Shown: positions 18,229 through 35,367, numbered from the stretch's first letter. The stretch is 64,000 nt of DNA from Eubacteriales bacterium (GCA_045656325.1 JAZOQX010000135.1:16-64015); one strand, 5' to 3'. Notes: generated by a model not told the origin, from the letters alone. A program made the numbers and translations.

Positions 18229-18957
18229 TCAAAGCGGTTTTTTTGATATTTTGGAGAAATGTCTCGGATAAATTTTTGGAGTGGTTTTTTTCTTTTGGAT
18301 AATAATTAATTTTCTTTCCTCGATATTTCCGTTCTGATCGATCAAGCTGCAAGGGATCCGATCGGCAACCTTTCCACCACATAGTGAAATACAGTTGGCG
18401 GCCTCGGTCAATTCTTCCTCGGCTTGCTGCGATTTCATGGAGATCATAGAGCCTCCGACCTTAACAAAGGGGAGGCAAAGCTCGCTAAGCATTCGCAGGT
18501 TGGCCACCGCTCGCGCGGTGGCTACGTCAAATTGCTCGCGAAATTCCTGTTTTGCGCCATATTCCTCAGCACGTCCCGCAATGGCGGTTACGTTGCCAAG
18601 CCCGAGCATAGAAGCGGTTTCTTCTACGTAGCGGATGCGCTTTGCCGTTCCGTCCAAAGCCACGATGCGAAGATCGGGGCGAAAGATTGCCAAAGGAAGG
18701 GAGGGGAAGCCCGCTCCGCAGCCGACGTCGATCACGGAGGCGTTTTGAGGGATAGATGCGGATATCATCAAGGAATCGACGTAATGCTTTAAAATAATTG
18801 CGTTTTCTTCGGTGATAGCCGTTAAATTCATAGATTGGTTGACGAAAAGCATTTTTTCGGTCAGCTTGTATAGCGATTGCGCCTGAGATTCATTACATTC
18901 CAAGCCGTTTTTGGAAAAGGTGTCTTGGCACGCTCTTGTAAATTCGGATAAGGTCAT
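18229..18957 (-). CDS. rsmG: 16S rRNA (guanine527-N7)-methyltransferase
   Basis: The protein is 242 aa. It has the SAM-binding segment VIDVGCGAGFPSLPLAI and the canonical position between mnmG and the par genes. Confidence 0.9.
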   Translation of the reverse strand: MTLSEFTRACQDTFSKNGLECNESQAQSLYKLTEKMLFVNQSMNLTAITEENAIILKHYVDSLMISASIPQNASVIDVGCGAGFPSLPLAIFRPDLRIVALDGTAKRIRYVEETASMLGLGNVTAIAGRAEEYGAKQEFREQFDVATARAVANLRMLSELCLPFVKVGGSMISMKSQQAEEELTEAANCISLCGGKVADRIPCSLIDQNGNIEERKLIIIQKKKTTPKIYPRHFSKISKKPL

Positions 18958-18974
18958 AGGATATCCTTTCTGTG

Positions 18975-18990
18975 TGTTTCACGTGAAACA
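18975..18990. promoter_or_regulatory. parS centromere-like site (perfect)
   Basis: The sequence is TGTTTCACGTGAAACA. It lies in the 34-nt gap between the mnmG stop (18992) and the rsmG start (18957). Confidence 0.9.
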
Positions 18991-18991
18991 A

Positions 18992-20854
18992 TTATTTCAT
19001 GCCCAGATAAATCAGTAAAACAGAAATATCCGCGGGATTTACTCCACTGATTCTCGATGCCTGCCCGATGGTGGCGGGGCGGATCTTGTCAAGCTTTTGC
19101 GCCGCCTCAATGCGAAGTCCTTTTATGGAGAGATAATCCAAATCCTCGGGAAGTCGTTTCGTTTCCAAGCGTTCGTGGCGTTCCACCTCTCGCAGCTGCC
19201 TTTTGATATATCCCTCGTATTTAATGGAAACCTCGGCTGTCTGTATAACGCGAAGGGGAAGGGAAGGGCGATGAGGATCTACCTCGGCGAGCATTTCGTA
19301 GGTGATATCGGGTCTGCGTAACAGATCGGCAAGGGATGCGCCGCTATTCAAGGGCTGCATTCCATATTTTTCCAAAAATGCCCGATAATATTCGGGGGAG
19401 CCATGGGTGGACTCCAAACGCTCGATCTCGGCTTTGATCTGCTCCTGCTTCTTCAAAAATTGTTGATAGCGCTCCTCCGAAATCAAGCCCGCAGCATATC
19501 CCTTGGGGGTCAGTCGGGCATCGGCGTTGTCCTGTCTGAGAAGAAGACGGTATTCCGAGCGGGAGGTCATCATGCGATACGGCTCGTTGGTTCCCTTGGT
19601 TACCAGATCGTCAATGAGGGTGCCGATATAGCTTTCCGAGCGGGAAAGGATCAAGGAGTCCCTGCCGTGAAGCTTTAAGGAGGCGTTCAGCCCCGCGATC
19701 AAGCCCTGCGCCGCCGCTTCCTCGTAGCCCGAGGTGCCGTTAAACTGTCCCGCGCCGTACAGTCCTTCCAAAAATTTACATTCCAAGGTGGGATAAAGCT
19801 GGGTGGGGTCCATGCAGTCGTATTCAATGGCATAAGCGTAGCGCATTACCTCTGCCTTTTCGAAGCCCTGCAGAGAGCGGAGCATCTTGTGCTGAACGTC
19901 CACGGGAAGGGAGGTGGAAAAGCCTTGAATATACATTTCCTCGGTGTCCGCTCCCACGGGCTCCACAAAGAGCTGGTGGCGTTCCTTGTCCGAAAAACGA
20001 ACCAGCTTGTCCTCGATGGAGGGGCAGTATCGGGGACCTGTGCCGTGAATTTGTCCCGAATACATGGCAGAGCGCGTAATATTCTCCCGAATGATCCGAT
20101 GGGTGTCGGCGTGGGTATACACCACGTGGCAGGGAATCTGCTCTTTTTCGTCAAAATCGGATTCCCTTGTCAGGGAGGAGTAGGGAATGATGGGCGCTTC
20201 GCCGTCCTGACGCTCCAATCCGTCAAAATCAATGGAACGTCGGTTGACGCGGGCGGGCGTTCCCGTTTTGAAGCGCATCAAGCGAATGCCGAGACGGGAA
20301 AGAGAATCCGAAAGTCCCTTGGCGGCAAGAAATCCGTCGGGACCGCTTTCATAGTTGACGTCTCCCACGAAAATGCGACTTTCCAAATAGGTTCCCGTAC
20401 AAATGATGGCGGCGCGGCACTGCCAAACCTCCCCAAGGCGGGTGGTAACCGAGCATACCTTGCCGTTTTCGGTACCGATATCTACGATCTCTGCTTGAAT
20501 CAAACGAAGATTGGAAATTTTTTCCAATCTTTCCTTCATCAAGCGGTGATATTCCTTTCGGTCGGCTTGAATACGCTTGGAGTGAACCGCCGCTCCCTTG
20601 CCGAGGTTCAGGGTTCGGGATTGGAGCGTGACCAGATCGGCGACCCGACCCATTTCACCGCCCAACGCGTCGATTTCATAAACCAGATGCCCCTTTCCCG
20701 TACCGCCGATGGAGGGATTACAGGGCATATTGGCGATGGATTCCAAGGACATGGTAAAAAGGACCGTATCCGAACCCGTTCTTGCTGCCGCCAGCGCGGC
20801 TTCGATTCCCGCGTGACCCGCGCCGATAACGGCGACCTCTGTAGTTGCTGACAT
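18992..20854 (-). CDS. mnmG: tRNA uridine 5-carboxymethylaminomethyl modification enzyme MnmG (GidA)
   Basis: I place the start at the ATG at 20854 (MSATTEVAVIGAGHAGIEA, FAD-binding GxGxxG). The track ORF begins 17 codons upstream at a TTG. Typical MnmG motifs run throughout (GTTPARV, GPRYCPSIEDK). Confidence 0.93.
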   Translation of the reverse strand: MSATTEVAVIGAGHAGIEAALAAARTGSDTVLFTMSLESIANMPCNPSIGGTGKGHLVYEIDALGGEMGRVADLVTLQSRTLNLGKGAAVHSKRIQADRKEYHRLMKERLEKISNLRLIQAEIVDIGTENGKVCSVTTRLGEVWQCRAAIICTGTYLESRIFVGDVNYESGPDGFLAAKGLSDSLSRLGIRLMRFKTGTPARVNRRSIDFDGLERQDGEAPIIPYSSLTRESDFDEKEQIPCHVVYTHADTHRIIRENITRSAMYSGQIHGTGPRYCPSIEDKLVRFSDKERHQLFVEPVGADTEEMYIQGFSTSLPVDVQHKMLRSLQGFEKAEVMRYAYAIEYDCMDPTQLYPTLECKFLEGLYGAGQFNGTSGYEEAAAQGLIAGLNASLKLHGRDSLILSRSESYIGTLIDDLVTKGTNEPYRMMTSRSEYRLLLRQDNADARLTPKGYAAGLISEERYQQFLKKQEQIKAEIERLESTHGSPEYYRAFLEKYGMQPLNSGASLADLLRRPDITYEMLAEVDPHRPSLPLRVIQTAEVSIKYEGYIKRQLREVERHERLETKRLPEDLDYLSIKGLRIEAAQKLDKIRPATIGQASRISGVNPADISVLLIYLGMK

Positions 20855-21163
20855 TTTTATATTCCTTTCAAGCGAAGGGGATTTCGCTCCGCTGAGAATT
20901 ATCAATCTTTCATATGTTTTTTTCGATTTTCCCTTGCCAAGGGCGTATGATTATGCTACAATAGAAGCAGAATCAAGAGAAGCGTCTCTCTACCTTCGGG
21001 GACCTTGATGCGCGCGCCTGCGAACCGATGGAAAAAAGATCCCAAGTTAGGGAGAGGCAACGGGAGAGATCGATTACTGCTATTATACCAAATTCTCTCT
21101 TGCTTTTCAAGAGGGAGAAGAAATTTTCGCGCGAAAATGATATGTAAAAAAGGAGATACGAAA

Positions 21164-22852
21164 ATGCCATGTGTTGATATGAAGCTGATGTCTTCCTTGG
21201 AAAAATGCTTTTTGGACGAGGAATTGGAAGCGAAACCCGAAACAAATGACTTTGTGATCTTCCGAAACGAGCGGCTTTCCTTTCAGCTTGGCGTTCGCCA
21301 CGAGGATCCGACGCAGGTCAGGCGGTTGCGTGTTCGGCTTTCGGGACCTTTAGCCGACTTCGTGACGGTCAAAAGAGTAGTCCATATCCCCTCGACCTTC
21401 CCCTACAACCCCAAATTGGCGGACGGGGATTATCTGAGATACACCCCCGGGGTATATCCGGATCTGATTGCCCCGTTGCATTATCGGGAAAGTCTGCTTT
21501 TGCCTTGCGGACAGCTTCAAACCCTTTGGTTCACGCTATCCTTGCCCGAGGATTATGCGGACGGGGACTATGATTTGGGAGTGACCTTGACCGCTGAGGG
21601 CCTGATTGAAAAGGGGACCGAAGAGGTAGGTACAAGGACCGTCCGTATTCGGGTATTGTCCGCCGCTCTTCCGCCCCAAAAGCTCATTCGTACCGAATGG
21701 TTTTACACCGATTGCCTTGCCAACTATTACGGTGTTTCCGCGTTTTCCGAGGAGCATTGGCGTATCATTGAGTCTTTTGTGAAGAAGGCGGCAGAGGGAG
21801 GGATCAATATGATCCTCACGCCTGTGTTTACGCCCGAGCTGGATACCTACGTGGGCGGTGAGCGCTTGACCACTCAGCTCGTGGAGATTTTCGTGAGGGA
21901 GGACGGATCCTATGCCTTTGATTTTGAAAGGCTGGATCGCTGGATCGACCTTTGCCGTGGGGCGGGGATTGAATATTTTGAGATCCCCCATTTCTTTACC
22001 CAATGGGGAGCGGCGCACGCCCCAAAATTCGTTGCGAAAACGGGCGGGAAGGAGGAGCGGATCTTCGGCTGGGATACCGATGCTATGGGAGAGGAGTACC
22101 GAGCGTTTCTCGGACGGTTTATTCCCGCCCTTTTAGATGCCCTTCGCAAAAAGGGAGTGGACAGAAAATGCTTCTTCCACGTGTCAGACGAGCCTCGCCT
22201 TGCCGATCTTGCCCATTATAAGGCGTGCAAGGAGCTGATCGGTCAGTATCTTAAGGGCTATCCGATCATCGACGCTCTGTCTGATTATGAATTCTACGCC
22301 ACAGGAGCGCTGGAGAAGCCCGTGCCTGCTACCCAGAAAATCGAACCGTTTCTCGCCGAGCGCATTGACGGTCTTTGGGCGTACTATTGCGGCGCCAGCG
22401 GCGCGAAAGACGTGTCGAACCGATTTTTCTCTCTGTCTCAGGCGAGAGTGCGGATCATAGGCGTTCAGCTTTGGTACTACCGTATAGAGGGCTTCCTCCA
22501 TTGGGGATATAATTTTTATAACAACCGCCATTCCTACGATGCGATCAATCCCTTTGCCGTTTCGGACGGAGAGGGCTTTGCTCCCTCGGGAGATACCTAT
22601 TTGGTATATCCCGGCGAGGGAGGGGAGGCGTGGGAGTCCTTACGCTTTTGCGCCATGAAGGAGGCGATGGACGATATTCGGGCGTTGGAGCTTTGTGAAT
22701 CGATCTATGGCAGGGAATTTACCGAACGCCTTTTGCTGGAGGATACAGATGGGATTCTGACCTTTGCCCATTATCCCAAAAACGCCGAATATTTGATCAA
22801 TTTACGAAGGAAGCTTGCCCTCGCCATTGAGGAGGGAAAAACGAAGGAATGA
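21164..22852 (+). CDS. DUF4091-type glycoside hydrolase-like protein
   Basis: I place the start at the ATG at 21164, preceded by AAAGGAGA. The N-terminus ...MKLMSSLEKCFLDE... and the overall length are typical of DUF4091 proteins. The family assignment is from memory. Confidence 0.65.
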   Translation: MPCVDMKLMSSLEKCFLDEELEAKPETNDFVIFRNERLSFQLGVRHEDPTQVRRLRVRLSGPLADFVTVKRVVHIPSTFPYNPKLADGDYLRYTPGVYPDLIAPLHYRESLLLPCGQLQTLWFTLSLPEDYADGDYDLGVTLTAEGLIEKGTEEVGTRTVRIRVLSAALPPQKLIRTEWFYTDCLANYYGVSAFSEEHWRIIESFVKKAAEGGINMILTPVFTPELDTYVGGERLTTQLVEIFVREDGSYAFDFERLDRWIDLCRGAGIEYFEIPHFFTQWGAAHAPKFVAKTGGKEERIFGWDTDAMGEEYRAFLGRFIPALLDALRKKGVDRKCFFHVSDEPRLADLAHYKACKELIGQYLKGYPIIDALSDYEFYATGALEKPVPATQKIEPFLAERIDGLWAYYCGASGAKDVSNRFFSLSQARVRIIGVQLWYYRIEGFLHWGYNFYNNRHSYDAINPFAVSDGEGFAPSGDTYLVYPGEGGEAWESLRFCAMKEAMDDIRALELCESIYGREFTERLLLEDTDGILTFAHYPKNAEYLINLRRKLALAIEEGKTKE

Positions 22853-22885
22853 ATTTACCATATTTCAAAAGCTGCCCCTGCGCGT

Positions 22886-22933
22886 AAAAAACGAGAAGCT
22901 CCGTTCAAGCCTTGAACGGAGCTTCTCGTTTTA
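22886..22933. terminator. Bidirectional terminator between convergent genes
   Basis: An 18-bp perfect stem pairs ACGAGAAGCTCCGTTCAA (22891-22908) with TTGAACGGAGCTTCTCGT (22912-22929). An A-tract lies upstream and a T-tract downstream. Confidence 0.85.
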
Positions 22934-24025
22934 TTCAAATTCAAAATGCTTTAGCGTGGCAAGCACTTTTTCCGCCATGTACATGAATCCAAGATCGTTG
23001 GGGTGGGTGCCGTCTACGGTACAAGCATCCTCCCACGTTCCGTGGAAGTAGCTTTCGCCGTCGATGTAATAGACGTTTTCGTCACCTTGAGCCCTTGCGT
23101 AGCGGAAGGTGTCAATGATTACGTCGCGGCGAGCAGCGCTGTCCTTGATTCTGCTCGGGTGGCCGATAAAATCGGGGCGGGACATCATAAGGTAGGGAAT
23201 GGAGGGATGCTTTTCTCGGATCTTTTGATACATTTTGCAATGGCTTGCACGCAGGTGTTCTGCGTTGGGGGCGTTGTGATCGTAGTCCGAGATAAAGGCG
23301 GACATTTCAAGATCTGCCATGTAGTCCACGATAAGATCCTCCGCCTTTCCGCTTCCCGAGAAACCGAGATTGACGTAGTCCAGATTCAGACGGCGGCAAA
23401 CGAGAGAAATGTAGTTGTTGCCAGGACGGGACGCGCAGCCGCCCTGTGTAATTGAGCTGCCGTAAAATACGAAGGGCTTCTTGTTGCGGTAGGGCAACCC
23501 TCTGCCTACCGATGCTGATTCCTGCAAGCCGATTTCCAGTCGATCTACGTTGCTGTACGTGGGGAAATTGATGGTCAGATGACGGAGCTGCTTGTCCCTT
23601 TTGAAATGGAAGATTGAAATATAACCGTTCGTCATGTGATAGGGAGGGCGGAAGGAGTTCGCATAGGTGCTTGTGCCTGTGACGGGATCGTCTATGTACA
23701 GGTCAAAGCCGGAGCCTCCCAAAAGGGACATATGGTTGTGGTGACCGATATGCGGCATATAGGCACGAAGCACGATGTAGTCAGAATCGGTGGAAAAGCG
23801 GACACGGCCGCCCGCCGTGTTCAGATAGAGCTGAGCCACGCCCTCATTGGTATGCAAGCCGATCTCGTCGGGCAAACGCTTGAAGACGTTTTCGTTTTTG
23901 TAATCGTAAAGCCCGTACACACGGAAGGGTTCGTCCTTTACGTCGTAAAATTTTACGTCAAGGCTGTCAAGGCTTACGTCCTCGTCGCACATTAGCTTGT
24001 CGGGTGTAAATTTTTCTTCACTCAT
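22931..24025 (-). CDS. SGNH/GDSL hydrolase family protein (carbohydrate esterase-like)
   Basis: The protein is 364 aa. Block I is FYGSSITQG and block V is DGTHPNDLGF. An N-terminal beta-sandwich-like extension is present. Confidence 0.78.
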   Translation of the reverse strand: MSEEKFTPDKLMCDEDVSLDSLDVKFYDVKDEPFRVYGLYDYKNENVFKRLPDEIGLHTNEGVAQLYLNTAGGRVRFSTDSDYIVLRAYMPHIGHHNHMSLLGGSGFDLYIDDPVTGTSTYANSFRPPYHMTNGYISIFHFKRDKQLRHLTINFPTYSNVDRLEIGLQESASVGRGLPYRNKKPFVFYGSSITQGGCASRPGNNYISLVCRRLNLDYVNLGFSGSGKAEDLIVDYMADLEMSAFISDYDHNAPNAEHLRASHCKMYQKIREKHPSIPYLMMSRPDFIGHPSRIKDSAARRDVIIDTFRYARAQGDENVYYIDGESYFHGTWEDACTVDGTHPNDLGFMYMAEKVLATLKHFEFE

Positions 24026-24051
24026 GTTCCGTCCCTCTCTTTTGAAGTAAT

Positions 24052-24088
24052 AAAAAGCGGAGAGCCCTTGCAGAAAAGGTCTCTCCGC
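24052..24088 (-). terminator. Intrinsic terminator after prfB
   Basis: The stem is GCGGAGAG (24057-24064) paired with CTCTCCGC (24081-24088). On the minus strand a T5 tract follows (plus-strand A5 at 24052-24056). Confidence 0.75.
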
Positions 24089-24094
24089 AAAAGC

Positions 24095-25207
24095 TTACGC
24101 CTGTTTTGCGTTCATCTTCAGATATTCGTTGATAAAGCCGTCGATCTCGCCATCCATCACGGCGGAGATATTTCCGTCCTCAAAGCCCGTACGGGTGTCC
24201 TTCGCCAACGTGTAGGGCATGAATACGTAGGAGCAGATCTGCGCGCCCCACTCAATGTTGGTTTTGTTACCCTGAATATCCTCAATGGTATCCAACCGCT
24301 CACGGAGCTTGATCTCCATCAGCTTCGCCTTCAGCATCTTCATGGCAGTCTCCTTGTTCTGGAGCTGAGAACGCTCGGTCTGACAGCCTACCACGATGCC
24401 CGTGGGCTTGTGGAGAATACGGATGGCGGAGTCGGTCTTGTTGATATGCTGACCGCCCGCGCCGCTGGAGCGATGCGCCGTGACCTCGATATCCTCGTCA
24501 CGGATCTCGACCTTGTCAATGTTGTCAAATTCGGGCATGACCTCAATGGAAGCAAAGGAGGTCTGCCGTCTGCCCGCCGCGTCAAAGGGAGAAACGCGGA
24601 CCAGGCGGTGTACGCCGTTTTCCGCCTTCAGGTATCCGTAGGCATTGAGTCCCTCCACCATGATGGTGGCGCTCTTGATGCCTGCGGCATCTCCGTCCAG
24701 CCAGTCGAGAAGCTTATATTTGTAGCCCCTGCGCTCTGCCCAGCGGGTAATCATGCGGTAGAGCATCTGCGCCCAGTCCTGCGCCTCGGTTCCGCCCGCT
24801 CCGGGGTGGAAGGAAACGATGGCGTTATTCTTGTCATATTCGCCCGACAGAAGGATCTCGATGCGCTTCTCCTCCGCTTCCTTGGCGATGGCATCCAGCT
24901 CACCCTGAACCTCCTCTACGTAGCCCTCCTCGTTTTCCTCGATCGCCATTTCCGCCAAGGTAATGGCATCCTCCAGACGGCTTGCCAAAGCCTCGTAGCC
25001 CTCAATGGTATCCTTGGTCTGCTTCAGCTTCTGCAGGACCTTCGAGGAATTTTCCTGATTCCCCCAGAAATTGGGGTCCAGCGTCTCGGCATCCAGCTTT
25101 TCCGCCAGCTCCTTCAGCTCGGCGATTCGCAGAGCGGAGCCGAGGTCGGCAATATCCTCTCTCATGCCGATCAGCTTATATTTTGCGTCTTCTAATGCGA
25201 TAATCAA
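24095..25207 (-). CDS. prfB: Peptide chain release factor 2, encoded as a single uninterrupted frame
   Basis: The protein has the SPF tripeptide (RVSPFDAAG) and the GGQ motif (SGAGGQHINKT). I prefer the TTG at 25207 as the start, because it lies 5 nt after GGGAGG. The ATG at 25225 has no SD. No CTTTGAC-type frameshift site is visible. Confidence 0.88.
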   Translation of the reverse strand: MIIALEDAKYKLIGMREDIADLGSALRIAELKELAEKLDAETLDPNFWGNQENSSKVLQKLKQTKDTIEGYEALASRLEDAITLAEMAIEENEEGYVEEVQGELDAIAKEAEEKRIEILLSGEYDKNNAIVSFHPGAGGTEAQDWAQMLYRMITRWAERRGYKYKLLDWLDGDAAGIKSATIMVEGLNAYGYLKAENGVHRLVRVSPFDAAGRRQTSFASIEVMPEFDNIDKVEIRDEDIEVTAHRSSGAGGQHINKTDSAIRILHKPTGIVVGCQTERSQLQNKETAMKMLKAKLMEIKLRERLDTIEDIQGNKTNIEWGAQICSYVFMPYTLAKDTRTGFEDGNISAVMDGEIDGFINEYLKMNAKQA

Positions 25208-25339
25208 AAAAACCTCCCGCAACATTCGTTGCTTCGTATCTAAAATTTGTCATATTCCATAATATTATACCACGGGAGAGGAAGGATTGTCAAGAGATTT
25301 TCCAACATGGATCTGGCGAAGTTCAAAAACATGATCATA

Positions 25340-25368
25340 TTGACAAAAACAGAAAAATATGCTATAAT
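25340..25368 (+). promoter_or_regulatory. Consensus sigma-70 promoter
   Basis: The -35 is TTGACA (25340-25345), followed by a 17-nt spacer and a -10 TATAAT (25363-25368). Both hexamers are perfect. Confidence 0.7.
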
Positions 25369-25430
25369 ATAAGCAAAGAGGTTGACGCGCACCACGTTCT
25401 AATGCCGATCTTTGTGAATAGTGCATACTA

Positions 25431-25466
25431 AAAAAAACGTGCGGCAACATTTCGTTGCCGCTTTTT
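25431..25466 (+). terminator. Intrinsic terminator about 70-100 nt downstream of the consensus promoter
   Basis: The stem is GCGGCAAC (25441-25448) paired with GTTGCCGC (25454-25461), with a 5-nt loop and a T5 tract at 25462-25466. An A8 tract lies upstream. Confidence 0.7.
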
Positions 25467-25573
25467 GCTTCCTTGATTTTTGAACGGAGGAATAGCAATG
25501 AACAAATTTGATTAAGAAGGTTAATTTTTCTTTATTATATTCGTTCTATCCAAAAAAGAAAAGGAGAAATTTT

Positions 25574-27589
25574 ATGAAAAAAAACTACGCAAAGCAATTC
25601 ATATCTTTTATTTTGAGTATAGTTCTTATCATAGTTTTTGTTATTTCGTCGAGCGCAAGCGCGCCTCTTGATACATATTATGGAATAATAGAAATGGACA
25701 GCAATTCACCAAATAGAGATTTGTCGGGTATTGAGATAAAAGTATTTTCCGCTGAACCTATTTACGATGAAGAAAGTCACGAGCTTTTATATTATGGTGA
25801 AACCTATGCCTTTTCTGTGTTTACGGAAATGGATGGAAGCTTTTCCTTTATAAAACCTACAGCCTTTTGCTCAGTTACGATAGATCTTCAATCTCTTCCT
25901 GTCGGGTATGGCATCAATCGTCAAGTGCAGTTTATTGCCGATGGGGTCACGTCCCACACTTTTGTTCTTTCAGAAGTAGAGGACATTGACGTGTATATGG
26001 AATACGGCCAAATTATGGTGGATTTTTATGGGGATGATAATCAGTACCTCCATGTTGACTATCAAATTGAAGAAACGCCTTTGAGCATGGAGGGACTTTC
26101 CAGTCACGAAATAAAACAGTTGACCTCTTATGATGTAATCGGCAAAGTAATTACACCTCATGGAGAAACCCCGTACGCCATCCCGGTTAATCTCTCTGAA
26201 TATTCTCTGCAAGAAAAAACCGATTATTTTTACTCAGAGGGATTGATTTCGGAGGAAAAGAAGATTGAGGTGTACTGTGATATTTTGTTGGACGAGACAT
26301 TGGATATTCAACTGCAAAGCGGTACTACGATAATTAATGAAGTTCTCTCTTATAAGAAGAATGTTTTGGAATCAAGTGAGGACATTTCCGTAATTAAAAG
26401 GGCAGATAAATCTGTGGCTGTCAACGCCCCTTTCATTACAAAAGTCGAAAATATTTGGGAGATGGTAAACAGAAGCGATTCAAGTGATTCGGCATATTAT
26501 CAGCGCACCATGGAGGATGGCTTTGTTTTTCGAATTCTCTACGATCCAAATGATTCAGATATAATACCGTACTATATCAATGAACTGGCCGACAATTTCG
26601 AAAATCATTACAATCAAATGGTAACAGGATTAGATTTCAATGCACCTATATCGCATATAGGAGGTTATTACGAGATAACGATGATAAATGATGGTACAGA
26701 ATCGAGTAAAGGCTTTACAACATATGAATCTTTGCCTGGTTCTTCAAAAATTACAATTAATTTTGCGGAATATGAAGGCGAAAACCAGGTTTCCTTTACT
26801 GTGGCGCATGAATTACACCATGCAATTATGGTAACGTATGGATTTAACACATCCTCGTGCGATAAATGGGTGCGGGAAGGATTTGCAAATATGGCGGCAA
26901 CAATCTGCACAACATCTCCACTTCCACCGCAAAACCCCATTATTATAGTGCGCTCTGCTCAAGGACAAATCAAAGAGTATTTGGAGAAAAGCTATCTTAG
27001 CATTTTTGATGAAGGTAATGGAGTATACGGAACTACACTCTATCCACTGTACATTTACGAAAATTTGGGTGGTTGGAACACCATAAAGGAAATTTATACT
27101 AATTTCAACACCACAAACGATATATACACGGCAATTTCAAGCGCTCGCCATATTACGTGTTATGATTACGCCTTTGTTGGAATGTTTTCAAATAACTACA
27201 AGCCACGTCTTTTTTATACAAGCTTAGCTTCGGCGAGTTCTGATTTAGATAATTCTGTTCCAATTCAGAATCTCGGCGTGGGGACATCTTCGTTACGTAC
27301 CCTTCCTCCAATGTCGGGACATTATTTGCAGCTTTCAAGCACAAGCAATATAGGTACGATATATGTTACGTGTACTGTTACGAGTGGGAATGAAAATGGA
27401 TTTTTTCTGTACAAAATAACGGAAACAAGCAGCGGGTTGCCACATATTGTAACCGAAAACTTTGATGTCACACAAATTACCTTTTCCCAGTCTAATTTTG
27501 GAGATACTGTTAAAAAGCTTACGTTGGTTCCTATGAATTCCAAGGCGACCAATGAGGAAATTTCTTATCGTGTCAGCGTAAGTAATTGA
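25574..27589 (+). CDS. Secreted zinc-metallopeptidase-like protein (gluzincin-type HExxH-x18-E)
   Basis: I place the start at the ATG at 25574, preceded by AAAAGGAGA. An N-terminal signal/anchor helix is present (FISFILSIVLIIVFVISSSASA). HELHH lies at 26807-26821, and a Glu within WVREGFAN at 26876-26878 follows with 18 residues between. The gene is AT-rich relative to its flanks. Confidence 0.6.
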   Translation: MKKNYAKQFISFILSIVLIIVFVISSSASAPLDTYYGIIEMDSNSPNRDLSGIEIKVFSAEPIYDEESHELLYYGETYAFSVFTEMDGSFSFIKPTAFCSVTIDLQSLPVGYGINRQVQFIADGVTSHTFVLSEVEDIDVYMEYGQIMVDFYGDDNQYLHVDYQIEETPLSMEGLSSHEIKQLTSYDVIGKVITPHGETPYAIPVNLSEYSLQEKTDYFYSEGLISEEKKIEVYCDILLDETLDIQLQSGTTIINEVLSYKKNVLESSEDISVIKRADKSVAVNAPFITKVENIWEMVNRSDSSDSAYYQRTMEDGFVFRILYDPNDSDIIPYYINELADNFENHYNQMVTGLDFNAPISHIGGYYEITMINDGTESSKGFTTYESLPGSSKITINFAEYEGENQVSFTVAHELHHAIMVTYGFNTSSCDKWVREGFANMAATICTTSPLPPQNPIIIVRSAQGQIKEYLEKSYLSIFDEGNGVYGTTLYPLYIYENLGGWNTIKEIYTNFNTTNDIYTAISSARHITCYDYAFVGMFSNNYKPRLFYTSLASASSDLDNSVPIQNLGVGTSSLRTLPPMSGHYLQLSSTSNIGTIYVTCTVTSGNENGFFLYKITETSSGLPHIVTENFDVTQITFSQSNFGDTVKKLTLVPMNSKATNEEISYRVSVSN

Positions 27590-27607
27590 TAGAAAGGAAA
27601 TAAGCGT

Positions 27608-28351
27608 ATGTTAAAACGAATAGCTTTTTTGTTAGTCCTGCTTCTTTTATTTCCGTTGCTTTTTGTCGGGTGCCGAGAGGCGGAAGAGAATATATCCAAC
27701 TCGGATACAAAAGAAGATGAACCAAACTTGCAGGCGGTAGACAACTCTAATATCGAACCGATTCAATCGGACGCGGACGAAAAGAAGGAAGAAGATTGTG
27801 CCGATTACGATTATGTTTCTGCTGATGGTAATGTTTCAGACTTTACCCCAATAGTGGTTCGGTGGGGCAGTGTAGTCGAAAATATAGTGTATGGAGATAA
27901 AAAACTTGTCGTGGTAAATGTGGAAGTGCTTGACGTGGCAAAGTATGCATGGGACTACGATGATGTGTGTGCCTTGGATGCGATTTATCTGCCTGAGAAT
28001 GCGCTAAAATATGTGGCGGAGGGAGAGGAATCTTTGGTGTTTGCCTTCTGCGAGTTTGGGAGAATCAATGAAGAGGGGGAGTACGTATACGTAGCATACA
28101 TGGATACTATTCCTGATGAGGTGGATTGGCCCTATGCCATCTTTCGATTTGAGGACAACCGCATGATTATGGATGAGGTGCAAATGGAAGCACTGGAGAC
28201 CGGTTATTGTGTAATATTCTTTAAAATTATGCACGCGATAAATAATTATAGGTTTGCGGAGTATGGAATAGACGAAAAATATCATTTCCGTAACGAAATG
28301 ACCATAGAGGACTTAGAGGAGTTTTACGAAGTGGTTAAAAGTCTGCCTTGA
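27608..28351 (+). CDS. Lipoprotein of unknown function
   Basis: The protein is 247 aa. It has a signal peptide with lipobox LFVGC, followed by an acidic linker. I recognise no family. It is AT-rich and lies 18 nt downstream of the metallopeptidase-like gene. Confidence 0.65.
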   Translation: MLKRIAFLLVLLLLFPLLFVGCREAEENISNSDTKEDEPNLQAVDNSNIEPIQSDADEKKEEDCADYDYVSADGNVSDFTPIVVRWGSVVENIVYGDKKLVVVNVEVLDVAKYAWDYDDVCALDAIYLPENALKYVAEGEESLVFAFCEFGRINEEGEYVYVAYMDTIPDEVDWPYAIFRFEDNRMIMDEVQMEALETGYCVIFFKIMHAINNYRFAEYGIDEKYHFRNEMTIEDLEEFYEVVKSLP

Positions 28352-28393
28352 CCGAAGATTTTTCGTCCGCAGAAGCTATGAAATCTATGAAAA

Positions 28394-28434
28394 ACAGACC
28401 GAATCTGCGTTATGCGGGTTCGATCTGTTTTTTT
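28394..28434 (+). terminator. Probable terminator of the AT-rich two-gene unit
   Basis: An imperfect stem pairs CAGACCGAA (28395-28403) with TTCGATCTG (28419-28427). A T7 tract follows. Confidence 0.55.
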
Positions 28435-28442
28435 GTAGAGTA

Positions 28443-29129
28443 TTATTTTTGTATTCCCAATTCCTCTGCAAACAGGGAAAAGGGGCTTGTCCGTGGGTCT
28501 GTGGCTTTTTCGCCGGGCAAATAGGAAAAACGCAGGGGTTGTCCGTTTCTTGGATGGGGAAAGGCGAGAAGGACCGAGCAAAGTCCCAAGGAAAACTCCG
28601 AGGCAGGCGCGCCGTAGCGGCGATCTCCGCAGAGGGGAAGTCCTCGGCTGCCGAATTGCACGCGGATCTGGTGGGTGCGTCCCGTATGAAGACGGATTCG
28701 AACAAGGGAATACCCCTCCCTCGATGCCAAGGTCTTGTAGTCCAGTATCGCTTCCTTGACCCCCTTTCGGCTTCGGGCCACCACAAAGGATTTGCTTCGC
28801 TGACGGTCATAGAAAAGAAGATCCCGAAGGGTCCCCTCGGTCTGCTCGGGCGTTCCGCAAACCACGGCAAGATACTCCTTTTTCATGGCTCCCTCGGCAA
28901 TGGCGCGGGAAAGCGCCGCCGCCCCCTGCGGGGTGCGGGCGTAGACCATCAGTCCCTCGGTTTCTCTGTCCAGTCTATGTACGGGGAGGATGGTATTCTT
29001 TTCGCTTCGCTCTCCAAGAGCTTGGGCAAGCAGGGAAGGGAAGCAATCGGGTCCCTCTCCCTCGGAGAGAAGCCCTTGCGGCTTGACCGAGACCAAAAGA
29101 TCTCGGTCAAGATAGTAAAAATCAGTCAT
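28443..29129 (-). CDS. RluA family pseudouridine synthase
   Basis: I place the start at the ATG at 29129 (MTDFYYLDRDLLVSVKP). The catalytic motif is HRLDRETEGLMV, and HTGRTHQIRVQF is also present. The upstream part of the track ORF is not supported. Confidence 0.85.
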   Translation of the reverse strand: MTDFYYLDRDLLVSVKPQGLLSEGEGPDCFPSLLAQALGERSEKNTILPVHRLDRETEGLMVYARTPQGAAALSRAIAEGAMKKEYLAVVCGTPEQTEGTLRDLLFYDRQRSKSFVVARSRKGVKEAILDYKTLASREGYSLVRIRLHTGRTHQIRVQFGSRGLPLCGDRRYGAPASEFSLGLCSVLLAFPHPRNGQPLRFSYLPGEKATDPRTSPFSLFAEELGIQK

Positions 29130-29152
29130 ATTGTCCTCGTTTCTGTCCGAGA

Positions 29153-29410
29153 TCATACCCTGCGCGCAAGACGGCAAAGGGCGCGGACCAGCCCCCAAAA
29201 CAGGAGGATCCCTCCAAGAAGCGCCACGATCTTCCAGATATGGTGTCGAGAATCCCCCGTAAAACGGTGGGTACATTCGGGCGTATCGGATTGCTCGTCG
29301 GGGTAGACCCAAAAGGACATATCGTACTTGTGACGGAGCTGAAGCCCGAATAGGGAGCGGCATTTTTCGGAGAGGGCGCGCCATAGGGTGGTATCGGAGA
29401 ATTTCTTCAT
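29153..29410 (-). CDS. Small membrane-anchored hypothetical protein
   Basis: I place the start at the ATG at 29410 (MKKFSDTTLW...). The protein is 85 aa with a C-terminal TM helix (IWKIVALLGGILLFWGLV). An AAGGA-like SD is present. The call is weak. Confidence 0.4.
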   Translation of the reverse strand: MKKFSDTTLWRALSEKCRSLFGLQLRHKYDMSFWVYPDEQSDTPECTHRFTGDSRHHIWKIVALLGGILLFWGLVRALCRLARRV

Positions 29411-29501
29411 GTGTTTCCATCCTTTCGTGAAAGAACTGTGTAAGGGTAGTATGCACGTTCGGAAAGGATCCCATTCATTGTAACATAAAACGCTGATTTT
29501 T

Positions 29502-30377
29502 TCAAGAGGGGATGGGAGGAAAGCTTCCACCCGTTTGGAGGATGGTTCCCTTGACGGCTTTTCCGTTTTCCTCGTGCTCGCATTGATAGGCGGCGGGACA
29601 GTCAAAGCTGCCCGATCCACCCGCCAGAAGGATCATGCCGTGTGCCGAAAGAGCCGCCTCGGAGCAGACCGCCGTCAGCGCTCCGCCATATACGAAAATG
29701 CCGCCAAGGGAGGAGGACTCCCTTGTGGCGTATCCGAATTTTGCGGCGTTGATCGCTGCCGTTCCGCCCCGTATCTCTATCCGTTTTTCGGAAAGGAAGC
29801 CGTATTCCGAGGCGGTGGCGCGGAGAGTCCCGTCCTCCATGGCAAGCGTCCCCGACGCGCTGACGGCGGTTTCGGCACCGCTGAGAGAAAGGCTTCCCTT
29901 GCCGCAAAGGACAAGATTGGTGTCCGCCTCCATGACCGAGTGACTCTCGGAAAACAGAAGATTGACCGAATCGGCGGCGGTTTCTATGACGACTGCCGCG
30001 GCAGAGATCACCGAAAGCGCGGGACGCTTGGAGGAACGGATCGAGACTCCGTCAAGGATCAGACGTACCGTCTCTCCCCAGCCCACCTCCACCGCAAGAC
30101 CGCCCTCCGTAAGCTCTCCCGTCAGTCGGTACGCGCCCGCCTCCTTGATGGTCAGCAGATCGTCCTTTGCCGTGATCGCTTCCTCGTCCCCCGTAAAGGA
30201 ATACCGCCGTCCGTCCAAGGAAAGAAGAGGGAGGAGGGGAGCCTCCTCTCGGTCGGGAGAGGATTCCGCCCCATCCTCCTCCGTGTCAAACGGGTCAAAG
30301 GGCGGAACCGCGGGACTGCACCCCGCCAAGCATAAGACCGTCAAGAGAGCGCAAAAGGCAAAGCAAAGCCGTTTCAT
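29502..30377 (-). CDS. Lipoprotein resembling the Cthe_2159-like carbohydrate-binding (beta-helix) family
   Basis: I place the start at the ATG at 30377, preceded by GGAAGGAGA. The lipobox is LAGC. The segment LLTIKEAGAYRLTGELTEGGLAVEV...LILDGVSIRSS matches the family pattern as I remember it. Confidence 0.6.
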   Translation of the reverse strand: MKRLCFAFCALLTVLCLAGCSPAVPPFDPFDTEEDGAESSPDREEAPLLPLLSLDGRRYSFTGDEEAITAKDDLLTIKEAGAYRLTGELTEGGLAVEVGWGETVRLILDGVSIRSSKRPALSVISAAAVVIETAADSVNLLFSESHSVMEADTNLVLCGKGSLSLSGAETAVSASGTLAMEDGTLRATASEYGFLSEKRIEIRGGTAAINAAKFGYATRESSSLGGIFVYGGALTAVCSEAALSAHGMILLAGGSGSFDCPAAYQCEHEENGKAVKGTILQTGGSFPPIPS

Positions 30378-30539
30378 AAAATCTCCTTCCTTTTTCAAAA
30401 ACCGCCGATTTCACGTATAAGTATAATAAAAGTATTGTAAAATCAGTAAAAATGTGGTACAATAAAGAGCAGTTGTTTTATTTTATGTATGGGATCATGC
30501 GATTAGACCGAACCCGCATGACCGTGGAAAGGAACACGT

Positions 30540-32087
30540 ATGCTTTCGACCGTTTTCAGCGCAGGACTTTTTGGGATTGACGGGTATATCGTCACCGTGG
30601 AATGTAACGCCCAATCGAGGATTCCGAGCTTTGAGCTGGTAGGGCTTCCCGATCTTGCCGTAAAGGAGGCAAAGGAACGGGTCAGAACTGCCTGTGAAAA
30701 CAGCGGATACCGCTTTCCGTCTCTGTCGCTGACGCTGAATCTGGCGCCCGCCGACCGCCGCAAGGAGGGATCGGGCTTTGATACCGCCATTCTTCTCGGG
30801 ATCCTCCGCAACGGAGGGATCCTGCGGACCACGGTGGATTTTTCCGATAAATGCTTTGTGGGAGAGCTGTCGCTTTCGGGCAAGCTTCGTCCCGTGCATG
30901 GAATCCTTTGTATGTGCGTTGCCGCCAAGGAGGCGGGCTTTGCCGAGTTTTACGCTCCCGCCGAAAACGCCAAGGAGGCGGCTGCGGTGAAGGGGATCCG
31001 CGTGTATGCCGTGGATAACGTCCGTCAGCTTGTGTGCCACCTGAACGGAGAGGCGCCTATCCCTCCCGTGGAATTTGACCGAACGGCGTTTTCAAGAGAA
31101 ATGGATCGCTCCTCTCTTGATTTTTCGGACGTGCGCGGACAGAAAATGGCAAAGAGAGCGATGGAGATTGCCGCGGCGGGCGGTCATAACGTGCTGCTCA
31201 TCGGACCTCCCGGTACGGGAAAATCCATGCTTGCCAAGCGGATTCCCTCGATTCTTCCGCCCATGACCTTTGAGGAGGCGATCGAAGCTACCAAGGTCCA
31301 CTCGGTGGCGGGAACCCTTCCCGAGGAGGTTTCTCTTTTGTCCCACCGTCCCTTCCGCTCTCCCCATCATACCATGAGCGCGGTCAGCTTGGTGGGAGGC
31401 GGGACCACGCCGAAGCCGGGAGAGGTGTCCTTGGCGCACAACGGCGTGTTGTTTCTTGACGAGCTTGCCGAATTTCCCAAGCAGGTCACCGATGCGCTCC
31501 GTCAGCCTTTGGAGGACCGTCGGGTTACCATCACCCGCGCGGCGGGACGGTTGACCTATCCCTGCTCCTTTATGCTGGTGGCGGCAATGAACCCCTGCCG
31601 TTGCGGAAATTTCGGGCATCCCACCAAGCCCTGCACCTGTAAGCCAAGGGACGTTAAAAATTATCTTGCAAAAATCAGCGGTCCCGTTTTGGACCGATTT
31701 GATATACAGATCGAGCTGCCCGCCCTCTCCTACGAGGAGCTGGCGACCCGAAGCGGGACCGAGGAGCCGTCCGCGGCGATCCGTCAACGCGTAACCGCCG
31801 CCAGAGAGCGGGCAGCCCTTCGAATGAAGGATGAGGAGGGCATCTATTGCAACGCCCAGTTGACCTCCGCCTCGCTTCGCGTCTACTGCCGTCTTGACCC
31901 CTCGGCGGATAAGCTGCTTCACGCCGCCTACGACCGCATGGGACTTTCGGCAAGAGGATACGACAGGATCCTTCGCGTGGCGAGGACCATTGCCGATCTG
32001 GACGGAGCCGAGGAGATCGGTGCTAAGCATATTGCCGAGGCGATCCAATATCGCTCTCTTGATAAAAAATATTGGGGCAACCAATAA
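30540..32087 (+). CDS. comM: YifB/ComM family Mg-chelatase-like AAA+ ATPase
   Basis: The protein is 515 aa. It has an N-terminal Lon-like domain (GIDGYIVTVECN), Walker A GPPGTGKS, VLFLDELAEF, and the C-terminal GARGYDRILRVARTIADL. Confidence 0.9.
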   Translation: MLSTVFSAGLFGIDGYIVTVECNAQSRIPSFELVGLPDLAVKEAKERVRTACENSGYRFPSLSLTLNLAPADRRKEGSGFDTAILLGILRNGGILRTTVDFSDKCFVGELSLSGKLRPVHGILCMCVAAKEAGFAEFYAPAENAKEAAAVKGIRVYAVDNVRQLVCHLNGEAPIPPVEFDRTAFSREMDRSSLDFSDVRGQKMAKRAMEIAAAGGHNVLLIGPPGTGKSMLAKRIPSILPPMTFEEAIEATKVHSVAGTLPEEVSLLSHRPFRSPHHTMSAVSLVGGGTTPKPGEVSLAHNGVLFLDELAEFPKQVTDALRQPLEDRRVTITRAAGRLTYPCSFMLVAAMNPCRCGNFGHPTKPCTCKPRDVKNYLAKISGPVLDRFDIQIELPALSYEELATRSGTEEPSAAIRQRVTAARERAALRMKDEEGIYCNAQLTSASLRVYCRLDPSADKLLHAAYDRMGLSARGYDRILRVARTIADLDGAEEIGAKHIAEAIQYRSLDKKYWGNQ

Positions 32088-32116
32088 TTCTACATCAACC
32101 GTAAAGGAGAAAAAAC

Positions 32117-33205
32117 GTGAACCGCGAGGATTTGAACGATTTGAAAAATACCATCGTTTCCCTTTGCTCGGTCATGTCGGTGTCGGGATACGAAACCCGT
32201 TATGCCGACGCTTTGCATAAAATGATCGCGCCCTTTTTCGATGAGAGCCGTACCGATGCGGTGGGCAATCATTTGTTTATCCGCCGATGCGGAAGGGAGA
32301 ACGTTCCCCTCGTCATGATCGATACGCACTACGACGAGATCGGTATGCTGGTGACCGACGTGACCGAGGGCGGATTTTTGAAATTTACCTCGGTGGGAGG
32401 ACTGTCTCCCTCTGTGCTTCAGGGCGCCGACGTGGTGATCTACGGAAAAAAGGTCATTCGCGGCGTGATTAGCTCTACGCCTCCCCACCTGAAAACGGGA
32501 TCGGATGAATCTCTTTCCGACCCCGAGGAGCTTCTCATTGATACGGGATACGACAAGGATACGCTTGCAAAGCTTTGTCCCATCGGAACGCCCGTCGGCT
32601 TCTCCCCCTGCTACGGGGAGCTGAAAAACGATCGGCTGGTGGGAAAGAGCTTTGATAATAAGGCGTGCGCCGCGGTGGCGATCTGTGCCATTGCCGCCAC
32701 ACCAAGGGAGAAGATGGCGGCGGACGTGGCGCTCTGCCTTTCCTGCTATGAGGAGACCTCGGCGCTGGGGGGGATCGCTCCCGCTGTGTATGATCTTCGT
32801 CCCGATTATGCCATGGTGGTGGACGTGAATCTGGCAAGAGTCCCCGATACTCCAAAGCGGGAAACGGTTCCCCTCGGAGAGGGAGTTTCTCTGTCGGTCT
32901 CCGCGGCGACTGATCGCAGACTCACCGCCATGACCCAAGCCCTCTGCCGCGAGAGGGAGATCCCTCACTGCATGATTGCCGCGCCCTCGTCTACGGGAAC
33001 CAACGCCGCTACGGTCCAGCTGATCGGAAAGGGTGTCCCCGTGGTGGACGTGGGCTTACCCCTTGCGTCGATGCACACCTACAACGAGGTCATCAGCCTT
33101 GCCGATGCGGAGTCGCTCCTTCGGTTGATTGGCGAATTTATCTCCTCGGACACCATTGCCGCCGCCTTTGCGGAATCCGACGTAATAGAAAAGGAGGAAG
33201 CGTGA
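32117..33205 (+). CDS. M42 family metallopeptidase (TET/FrvX-like), paralogue 1
   Basis: The protein is 362 aa. It has the THYDEIGMLV metal-ligand segment, FDNKA, and overall M42 architecture. Confidence 0.82.
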   Translation: MNREDLNDLKNTIVSLCSVMSVSGYETRYADALHKMIAPFFDESRTDAVGNHLFIRRCGRENVPLVMIDTHYDEIGMLVTDVTEGGFLKFTSVGGLSPSVLQGADVVIYGKKVIRGVISSTPPHLKTGSDESLSDPEELLIDTGYDKDTLAKLCPIGTPVGFSPCYGELKNDRLVGKSFDNKACAAVAICAIAATPREKMAADVALCLSCYEETSALGGIAPAVYDLRPDYAMVVDVNLARVPDTPKRETVPLGEGVSLSVSAATDRRLTAMTQALCREREIPHCMIAAPSSTGTNAATVQLIGKGVPVVDVGLPLASMHTYNEVISLADAESLLRLIGEFISSDTIAAAFAESDVIEKEEA

Positions 33206-34323
33206 TGAAGCCGATTTTGTTTGAAAATCCCGCCCTGCCTGAGGGCTTTTCTCCTCTGCCGGAGGAGGAGCTGATCTACACCCTCTGCGGCGCGTTCGGT
33301 CCTACGGGCTGTGAAGCCCCTGTCCGAGAAACGATCCTGCCCCTTGTCCGCCCCTTTGCCGATTCGATCCTCAGGGATTCTATGGGGAATCTCATTTGCC
33401 TTTGTCGGTTCGGTGAGGGTGAGGATAGACAAAAGATTATGATCTCCGCGCATATGGACGAGGTGGGCATGATGGTTACCGAGATCACCGAGGACGGCTA
33501 TTGCCGCTTCGATACGGTAGGTGGGATCATGCTTTCGGTCATGGAGGGAAGAAGGGTTACTCTCGGAGACGAGAACCGACAAATCTCGGGTGTGATCGCG
33601 TCTAAAGCCATCCACCACAAAAAGCCGAAGGACCGAAAGAAGCCGACGGATATCGAAAAGCTTTATATTGATATCGGCGCGAAAAATCGGGAGGAAGCCG
33701 AGGCGTTGGTTTCAGTGGGAACGCTTGCTACCTTTGATTCCGAGGCCTATCGCTTCGGAGAGGGAGGTATGCAGATCAAGGCGAAGGCGCTGGACGACCG
33801 TCTGGGCTGCGCCGTTATGATCCGCGCCATGGAGTCGCTTCGCAAACATCCCCCCGAAGGGGACGTGGATCTCTATTTCTGCTTCACCGTGCGGGAGGAG
33901 ATCGGACGTTCGGGCGCCAAGGTGGTCGCCAATCGACTTGCCCCCGACGCGGCGCTGGTGCTGGAGTGTACCGCCGTTTCCGATCTTTCCGAGGTGCCCG
34001 AGCATCGCCGCGTGGCGATCCAGGGCAAGGGAGGCGCGATCTCGTTGATGGACCGCGCTACGGTCTATGACCGAGCCTTTGTGGACTTTGCGCTGGAAAC
34101 CGCCCGACGGGATGGGATCCCCGTACAGGTCAAAAAATTTGTTTCGGGAGGAAACGACGCGGGCTCGATCCATAAATCGGGCGAGGGGGTCAAGACCCTT
34201 GCGCTGTCGGTTCCCACCCGCTATCTCCATTCTCCCGCCTCGGTGGCAAATCTCAACGATTTTCGCAGTGTGACGGCGCTTTGCGAGGCTCTACTTCGCC
34301 GTCTGTCCACGGAAAGGATCTAA
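33205..34323 (+). CDS. M42 family metallopeptidase, paralogue 2
   Basis: The ATG at 33205 overlaps the upstream stop (TGATG), and AAGGAGGA lies 6 nt upstream. The protein has AHMDEVGMMV and LDDRLGC. Confidence 0.82.
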   Translation: MKPILFENPALPEGFSPLPEEELIYTLCGAFGPTGCEAPVRETILPLVRPFADSILRDSMGNLICLCRFGEGEDRQKIMISAHMDEVGMMVTEITEDGYCRFDTVGGIMLSVMEGRRVTLGDENRQISGVIASKAIHHKKPKDRKKPTDIEKLYIDIGAKNREEAEALVSVGTLATFDSEAYRFGEGGMQIKAKALDDRLGCAVMIRAMESLRKHPPEGDVDLYFCFTVREEIGRSGAKVVANRLAPDAALVLECTAVSDLSEVPEHRRVAIQGKGGAISLMDRATVYDRAFVDFALETARRDGIPVQVKKFVSGGNDAGSIHKSGEGVKTLALSVPTRYLHSPASVANLNDFRSVTALCEALLRRLSTERI

Positions 34324-34327
34324 CCCT

Positions 34328-35344: not shown

Positions 35345-35367
35345 AAAAACAAGTAAGGAAGAAAGCA

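Follow-up and report, generated by a model that had tools for sequence, protein, structure and literature searches.

A hypervariable AT-rich cassette of uncultured Clostridia pairs a predicted secreted gluzincin with a putative partner lipoprotein

Between prfB and a gene of the RluA family, a Eubacteriales bacterium carries about 3 kb of AT-rich DNA in which a gene for a putative secreted protease is followed by one for a lipoprotein, and the question raised by this locus is what holds the two genes together. The locus lies in a 64,000-nucleotide stretch (GCA_045656325.1 JAZOQX010000135.1:16-64015), which was analyzed over its full length and is referred to here as the window. Gene 1 (25574-27589, + strand) encodes a predicted secreted, multidomain zinc metallopeptidase of 671 residues, and gene 2 (27608-28351, + strand) a predicted lipoprotein of 247 residues. 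An earlier description made without database searches, hereafter the sequence-only reading, had reported a sharp compositional drop and two co-oriented genes separated by 18 nt and ending in a terminator, and both observations stand. The G+C content between 25226 and 28440 is 38.8%, compared to a mean of 53.1% (standard deviation 2.8, minimum 44.7) in the other 3.2-kb windows (z = -5.1), and the two genes have a G+C at third codon positions (GC3) of 0.36 (gene 1) and 0.45 (gene 2) versus 0.60-0.75 across six neighboring genes. The open reading frames (ORFs) are indeed co-oriented with an 18-nt spacer, and an intrinsic terminator (28400-28432, + strand), consisting of a 10-pair stem (hairpin 28400-28422) and a T-run, closes the operon. 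The explanation that we favor, tentatively and at somewhat less than an even chance, is that the locus would encode a Sec-secreted gluzincin endopeptidase and its cognate surface-tethered inhibitor or immunity lipoprotein, with joint exchange of the catalytic half of the protease and the lipoprotein in a single cassette, and with the protease itself dispensable.

The gene 1 ORF begins at an ATG preceded by an AAAGGAG ribosome-binding site and specifies a signal peptide (residues 1-31), two beta-sandwich domains (32-206), a helical region (207-304), a catalytic domain (~305-560), and a C-terminal beta domain (~561-671). The predicted active site (26807-26878, + strand), assigned from translation and conservation, comprises H412-E413-x-x-H416 and, 18 residues further on, E435 in the sequence WVREGFA. 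HELHH is encoded at 26807-26821, and the spacing from H416 to E435, which had been proposed as a gluzincin signature, is exactly 18 residues by translation. Among 53 diverse family members, on which all conservation counts are based, H412, E413, and H416 are invariant, E435 is kept in 52 and W432 in 49, and Y485 (27026-27028), the candidate catalytic tyrosine, is found in 51. An AlphaFold2 model built from a 53-sequence alignment reached a predicted local distance difference test (pLDDT) score of 88.4 and a predicted template modeling (pTM) score of 0.85. An earlier model from eight sequences was weak (pLDDT 69), and its Foldseek matches were mostly small beta-sandwiches. The later model contains the signal helix already suspected from the sequence, two beta-sandwiches (residues ~34-206), a helical region, an alpha/beta catalytic domain, and an all-beta C-terminal domain, with HExxH on one helix (403-421) and the glutamate ligand on another (431-447). 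Nearly all Foldseek matches in the PDB were M1 aminopeptidases (best E = 5e-7, probability 1.0, ~400 aligned columns), with template modeling (TM) scores to M1 structures of only ~0.25. With a pLDDT of 88 and M1 enzymes as the top solved-structure matches, the HExxH region is thus modeled as a metalloprotease fold, more precisely as a gluzincin catalytic region with a thermolysin-like fold.

The accessory modules put forward by the sequence-only reading were recovered only in part. The N-terminal region is beta-rich in the model, as a Cna-B/CarboxypepD_reg-like module would be, but the Pfam families CarboxypepD_reg, CarbopepD_reg_2, or SdrD_B were matched by only one or two of the 53 relatives. 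Similarly, the C-terminal domain proposed to be PPC-like is all beta, and Foldseek matched beta-sandwiches resembling collagenase collagen-binding domains, without distinguishing which beta domain of gene 1 they correspond to. No wall-anchoring motif of its own was found in the gene 1 ORF.

A word-indexed protein search returned just eight close relatives among 5.8 billion proteins, and a profile search of 1.84 billion cluster representatives recovered 833 clusters with E <= 1e-3, of which 152 reach E <= 1e-30. The majority are ~650 residues long and align end to end. Single-sequence matches near HExxH remained below threshold and comprised DUF2268 (22.8 bits, gathering cut-off 23.6), DUF6055 (16.2 bits, gathering cut-off 27), DUF5700, flagellinolysin, and MXAN_6640_HExxH. 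DUF6055 was matched by 12 of the 53 relatives, and one relative (P0002) has a precomputed match to it. The broadest agreement was obtained with NF045524, the MXAN_6640 family of putative metalloproteases, which 51 of the 53 relatives match at E <= 0.01, several of them covering profile positions ~15-289 of 290. Against the 140-bit cut-off of this profile, gene 1 scores 22.4 bits and the individually checked relatives 25-62; gene 1 and 9 of the 10 relatives checked in this way fall far below it; one member of alignment A4 matches at E = 2.7e-63. The catalytic-domain profile also matched an M30-like neutral metalloprotease (7bb8, E = 2.4e-4). A single-sequence search of the PDB with gene 1 gave no match, and PHROGs and PADLOC gave only weak ones over the HExxH region.

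The sequence-only reading had likened gene 1 to M1-type enzymes, a likeness that holds only for active-site spacing and fold, and all curated cut-offs were failed. The GxMEN exopeptidase motif is absent from the gene 1 family, whose equivalent strand reads G389-x-S391-[Y/K]-I393 with neither Glu nor Asn. Pfam M1 (PF01433) does not match gene 1 and is matched by 4 of the 53 relatives (best E = 6.3e-5), and the AlphaFold2 model lacks a helical ERAP1_C-type C-terminal domain, residues ~564-670 being all beta. Since GxMEN is missing and the C-terminal domain is beta rather than helical, gene 1 is M1-like in active-site geometry without being an M1 member and, judging from its sequence, is probably an endopeptidase rather than an aminopeptidase. 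Nor does it carry the metzincin motif HExxHxxGxxH, as HELHH is followed by AIMVTYGFN and the third ligand is a glutamate. Its catalytic domain is best described, by profile comparison, as a divergent relative of NF045524, which makes the uncharacterized MXAN_6640 family its nearest named relative. No mention of MXAN_6640 was found in the literature, where DUF6055 appears in one paper and DUF2268 in two (one to three passing mentions per paper, none in a title or abstract), and literature on 7BB8 and hyicolysin yielded nothing useful. Taken alone, the protease is a new divergent member of a known, uncharacterized gluzincin group.

Gene 2 had been described as a lipoprotein of no recognizable family, and the evidence agrees. 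Its N terminus reads MLKRIAFLLVLLLLFPLLFVGC by translation, and the protein comprises a signal peptide with a lipobox (residues 1-22, LFVGC), an acidic variable linker (23-77), and a conserved globular domain of ~170 residues (78-247). The lipobox signal, MLKRIAFLLVLLLLFPLLFVG-C22, retains its cysteine in 10 of 11 homologues, the exception being a protein of locus L005 that has a transmembrane anchor instead. The domain bears the motifs VVRWG, EGEESLVF, and FRxGMTxEELExF and matched nothing in Pfam, NCBIfam, or the PDB, with only chance-level matches when the domain profile was compared to the PDB and Pfam. A profile search found 22 database relatives, all from Clostridia or Bacillota metagenome-assembled genomes.

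The two genes do occur together in other genomes. Pattern scans of genomes and of metagenomes returned four loci and one locus, respectively, and local profile searches over all fetched loci showed that 9 of 10 distinct protease loci have, downstream of the protease gene, a gene for the lipoprotein domain, namely the window, L002, L003 (in two copies), L004, L007, L005, L015, L016, and L021; the tenth is L006. The surroundings differ from locus to locus (prfB/rluA, ileS/maf, mfd, spoIVA/rpiB).

Comparison of close relatives revealed how this arrangement varies. Two contigs of independent assemblies (L008 and L009), 99% identical to positions 17689-36352 of the window, lack the segment 25632-27551 (+ strand) through an in-frame deletion of 1,920 bp with a CA microhomology at the junction. 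What remains in L008 is a 31-residue ORF, MKKNYAKQFISFILSIILI-NEEISYRVSVSN, in which the start of the signal peptide is joined to the last 12 codons of the protease gene; the lipoprotein gene is intact. Lipoprotein loci without a protease were found at three chromosomal sites in total: prfB (L008 and L017), ileS (L010/L011), and spoIVA (L019). In L017, which belongs to the same genome as the L002 pair, the order is prfB, lipoprotein, rluA; in L010/L011, three tandem lipoprotein paralogues lie between ileS and maf; and in L019, a single lipoprotein gene lies between spoIVA and rpiB. No protease remnants were detectable in L017, L010, and L019, which therefore cannot be called deletions. Lipoproteins of this solitary kind are still subject to purifying selection, with a ratio of non-synonymous to synonymous substitution rates (dN/dS) of 0.19 (L018 versus L020), their neighbors showing 0.04-0.09.

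A second type of variation was observed between L004 and L007, whose DNA is 98-100% identical up to about codon 288 of the protease, only 41-67% identical from there across the remaining protease domains (catalytic and C-terminal) and the lipoprotein gene, and again 91-100% identical from ~140 nt before the lipoprotein stop codon. At the protein level, the signal peptide, N-terminal beta, and helical regions are 100, 97, and 99% identical, values that drop to 54% in the catalytic domain, 60% in the C-terminal domain, and 43% in the lipoprotein, and the flanking RpiB and TsaD are 99 and 97% identical. The right-hand breakpoint is the same when L004 is compared to L019. Over seven pairs, which are not independent, lipoprotein divergence correlates with that of the catalytic half at r = 0.94 and with that of the N-terminal half at r = 0.87. 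On these comparisons, the locus is a hypervariable cassette that recombination exchanges at fixed sites. Next to it, prfB itself shows 15 synonymous and no non-synonymous differences between the window and L008, ten of the differences falling within 250 nt (~24250-24500; synonymous divergence [pS] 0.061, versus ~0.01 in other genes), a cluster that suggests a small recombination tract beside the cassette.

The cassette is also preceded by a conserved leader. A promoter (25340-25368, + strand) matches the consensus at 12 of 12 positions (TTGACA, 17 nt, and a TG-extended TATAAT), and its hexamers are unchanged in five related loci across three chromosomal sites. It is followed by a region (25369-25471, + strand) in which alignment and consensus folding reveal a 5' hairpin, a G+C-rich terminator hairpin (25441-25461), and a T-run. 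The same layout of promoter, 5' hairpin, terminator with T-run, and ribosome-binding site recurs in L002 (5372-5476), L017 (5866-5970), L010/L011 (3481-3581 in L010), and L003 (5791-5900 and 8998-9121). A covariance model of the leader (R1) matches the window (78 bits), L008, L002, L017, L010/L011, and L003, and it finds a copy on which it was not trained before the second lipoprotein gene of L003 (E = 1e-5). Covariation is thin, with two compensatory pairs in five sequences, the copy in the window is not unusually stable (z = -1.6), and Rfam gave no match on 24000-29500 at E <= 1. In loci with the lipoprotein alone, the distance between T-run and start codon is only ~25-30 nt; expression would therefore have to read through the terminator, implying attenuation, and the leader is a candidate transcription attenuator. 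Downstream of the leader terminator in the window (25484-25515), a GGAGG ribosome-binding site precedes a five-codon mini-ORF (ATG AAC AAA TTT GAT TAA). Similar ORFs of three to four codons occupy the aligned position in L002 and L003, and it is there that the lipoprotein gene starts in the solitary loci; the mini-ORF may be a vestige of an ancestral leader-lipoprotein junction or a leader peptide. A second perfect promoter (TTGACA-18-TATAAT, 25264-25293, - strand) is directed at prfB, such that the prfB-gene 1 intergenic region holds two divergent consensus promoters with 47 nt between them.

Under the explanation that we favor, the region would function as a leader-controlled two-gene operon. 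We infer that the Sec pathway exports the gene 1 product, which would then be set free as a soluble, gluzincin-type zinc endopeptidase, with H412, H416, and E435 as predicted zinc ligands, E413 as general base, and Y485 probably stabilizing the transition state, while the flanking beta-sandwich domains probably attach to a substrate that is polymeric or located on a surface. Gene 2 would be lipid-anchored on the outer face of the membrane, where the long acidic linker could extend the ~170-residue domain into the wall zone. This domain would most likely bind the catalytic or C-terminal half of the cognate protease and block its activity, shielding the surface of the producer and also protecting protease-less relatives from the enzyme of their neighbors. 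The catalytic half and the lipoprotein would be replaced jointly by homologous recombination, anchored on the left in the conserved N-terminal half of the protease gene or the leader and on the right in the final ~140 nt of the lipoprotein gene, which are conserved, and the protease, being dispensable, would be lost repeatedly. Loss of the protease with retention of the lipoprotein, together with co-replacement of the catalytic half and the lipoprotein, lends indirect support to the idea of an inhibitor or immunity protein, and this pattern of swaps and losses among close strains resembles that of toxin-immunity pairs. The favored explanation also draws on the conserved synteny of the two genes, on the position of the left breakpoint at the edge of the catalytic domain, on the constraint seen in lipoproteins without a protease, and on traits described for polymorphic toxin systems (PMC3482391). 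A bolder version, which we regard as doubtful, is that of a Sec-dependent polymorphic protease-immunity system of gut and rumen Clostridia: the free gluzincin would attack a surface component of competitors, the tethered lipoproteins would act as allele-specific inhibitors, cassettes of catalytic domain and immunity gene would be swapped by recombination, orphan immunity genes and arrays would build up in non-producers, and expression would be gated by an undescribed terminator-containing leader RNA.

Several observations weigh against an inhibitor or immunity role. L004 and L007 are the only sharp mosaic pair found, and linkage alone could move both genes in a single recombination tract. The lipoprotein has no similarity to any known inhibitor in profile searches of the PDB and Pfam, and the protease has a Sec signal only, neither the Pfam and NCBIfam searches nor the model showing a toxin-delivery domain. 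In L006, which encodes two proteases, a lipoprotein domain was not detected. Sigma-70 genes of the extracytoplasmic function (ECF) type adjoin the protease in 3 of 10 loci (L002, L005, and L006), and the lipoprotein-type domain of L005 is part of a transmembrane protein that occupies the anti-sigma position, an arrangement better suited to a role in signaling or as a substrate. These observations on the ECF loci speak for an explanation that we nonetheless find unlikely, in which the lipoprotein is the substrate or signaling target of the protease, so that the tethered domain is clipped off or an anti-sigma-like sensor is degraded, turning on an ECF sigma regulon or remodeling the wall. There is precedent in Listeria monocytogenes, where the secreted metzincin Mtz cleaves and releases the adjacent lipoprotein Tim, which resembles tissue inhibitors of metalloproteinases (TIMPs) (PMC8235301); moreover, the L005 gene overlaps the end of the sigma gene, and the long exposed linker of gene 2 is an obvious cleavage target. 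However, neither the window nor most loci contain a sigma factor, the L005 protein has no recognizable anti-sigma domain, and a protein serving only as a substrate should not persist, form tandem arrays, and stay constrained after loss of the protease. It is likewise improbable that the two products do not interact specifically at all and are simply extracellular proteins sharing an operon, both diversifying in response to phage, host antibody, or niche and co-replaced through adjacency. Both are indeed predicted to be secreted or exposed at the surface, genomes with 95-99% identical flanks show hypervariability at this locus, the lipoprotein stands alone at six loci, and its ratio of non-synonymous to synonymous differences (pN/pS) between the window and L008 is ~1, with changes mostly in the linker and small counts. 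Yet 9 of 10 loci, although just 30-57% identical and situated in unrelated neighborhoods, retain the order protease-then-lipoprotein, and the left breakpoint coincides with the beginning of the catalytic domain instead of a gene boundary. We give still less weight to the lipoprotein being a private foldase, maturation factor, or docking partner of the exported protease, comparable to lipase-specific foldases or PrsA. Its gene lies immediately 3' and is probably co-transcribed, its product would share the compartment of the protease, and the latter has no wall anchor of its own; but a helper should vanish with its client, whereas the lipoprotein persists without the protease at three sites, occurs in arrays, and is still under constraint. 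It also evolves much faster than the protease (43% versus 74% identity between L004 and L007).

The origin of the cassette raises a related alternative, namely that the whole 3-kb segment is a foreign island recently acquired between prfB and the RluA-family gene. The foreign origin proposed by the sequence-only reading has in its favor the strong contrast in composition and codon usage; in addition, relatives occur in differing neighborhoods, two of them beside relaxase or Mob genes, and the family is rare, as its few close relatives attest. A recent insertion seems very unlikely to us. In agreement with the sequence-only reading, no flanking direct repeats of note and no integrase were found: only short, chance-like repeats surround the cassette, the ORFs read at 22000-32000 include none similar to an integrase, and no tRNA was seen at the cassette borders. 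Furthermore, in the species of L017 the prfB-rluA site holds a family lipoprotein that this leader precedes as well. PrfB and ComM of that species are 97 and 91% identical to those of the window, yet its lipoprotein shares only 37% identity; occupation of the site is therefore old. AT-richness is also family-wide, since the proteases have a GC3 of 0.28-0.43 in all hosts versus a locus G+C of 0.43-0.53, and most lipoprotein genes behave likewise. The data fit a hypervariable site of long standing, replenished by recombination from a pool of AT-rich genes, better than a recent 3-kb insertion.

The surroundings of the related loci hold further features of their own. Genes for a relaxase and MobC or for MobA lie beside two family loci, L005/L014 (2055-3403 and 7774-12149) and L006 (11364-12665), and the cassette of L005 precedes the gene for a 1,681-residue RHS/YD-shell protein with leucine-rich repeats, typical of polymorphic-toxin carriers. 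The ECF sigma genes (L002, 8774-13301; L005, 6184-7678; L006, 9784-11063) are each followed by a gene for a single-pass membrane protein; identification of these as anti-sigma factors was not retained, as none has an anti-sigma Pfam domain. In L016 (3-847), the protease frame is broken just past HExxH and two intact lipoprotein-domain genes follow; because contig coverage is only ~4x, the break reflects either a pseudogene or a faulty assembly. An extra lipoprotein of ~205 residues and no known family follows the cassette in L004 (8768-9379) and L019 (6827-7450), where the two are 93% identical, and is not present in L007. A degraded lipoprotein domain was sought in L006 and not detected, and local profile searches excluded the 685-residue genes near L018 and L020 from the family. 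Viral contig scans with both proteins gave no viral association. Within the window, a second AT-rich patch (~61750-63500, 36.5-41% G+C in 1-kb windows) is the sole other region of such low G+C; it spans a 218-residue multi-pass membrane protein ORF (61467-62123, - strand) and the end of a 325-residue ORF (63008-63985, - strand).

Operons of a secreted protease and a partner are known, as are polymorphic toxin-immunity loci, and a free metalloprotease whose catalytic half is swapped alongside a lipoprotein would, if the favored explanation is true, unite both ideas. It would point to surface-directed antagonism or self-protection in uncultured gut and rumen Clostridia, hosts known solely from metagenome-assembled genomes, without a specialized secretion machine, and it would provide a first functional handle on an uncharacterized peptidase group of ~830 clusters, an orphan lipoprotein domain, and an unclassified leader. 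Were these only two co-variable surface proteins, the locus would still be a clear case of within-species cassette polymorphism.

Compared to known systems, gene 1 shares with M1 aminopeptidases (APN, ERAP1/2, IRAP, PfA-M1) the HExxH-x18-E signature, the W-x-x-E-G-F-A context, which human APN also has, and an N-terminal beta domain before a thermolysin-like domain; it differs from them in lacking GxMEN, a helical C-terminal domain, and a Pfam M1 match, and in its low TM-scores. With NF045524, DUF6055, DUF2268, and DUF5700, named families that are themselves uncharacterized, it shares a homologous catalytic domain. Co-transcribed protease-inhibitor pairs, in which a small partner shields the producer, include serralysin AprA with AprI/Inh, protealysin with emfourin, and staphopain with staphostatin. 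The gene order of protease then partner is the same here, and profile searches found no sequence similarity of gene 2 to those inhibitors; to our knowledge, hypervariability and cassette exchange are not features of these pairs. The Mtz-Tim system likewise consists, in a Firmicute, of a gene for a Sec-secreted HExxH protease beside a lipoprotein gene, with both products extracytoplasmic and, in that case, co-expressed (PMC8235301). Mtz is a metzincin with a third histidine ligand, whereas gene 1 is a gluzincin with a glutamate in this position; Tim is TIMP-like and cleaved by Mtz, whereas gene 2 is characterized here by its sequence and matches no family; and the Listeria locus has a phage-type CI/Cro switch, in contrast to the promoter-hairpin-terminator leader found here, which has no phage link. 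In polymorphic toxins, the C-terminal domain varies together with the immunity gene, metallopeptidase toxin domains are known, and toxins that act at the surface are countered by secreted or membrane-bound immunity proteins, lipoprotein immunity being exceptional in the survey (Imm65 only) (PMC3482391). The present locus resembles these systems in its conserved N-terminal part and its variable enzymatic C-terminal part replaced with the downstream gene, as seen in one pair (L004/L007), and in its orphan and tandem partner genes, and it differs from them in that gene 1 has a Sec signal only, with no type V to type VII secretion, RHS, or LXG delivery module. The pair, its cassette polymorphism, and its leader together constitute a new variation on the known themes of protease-partner and toxin-immunity systems.

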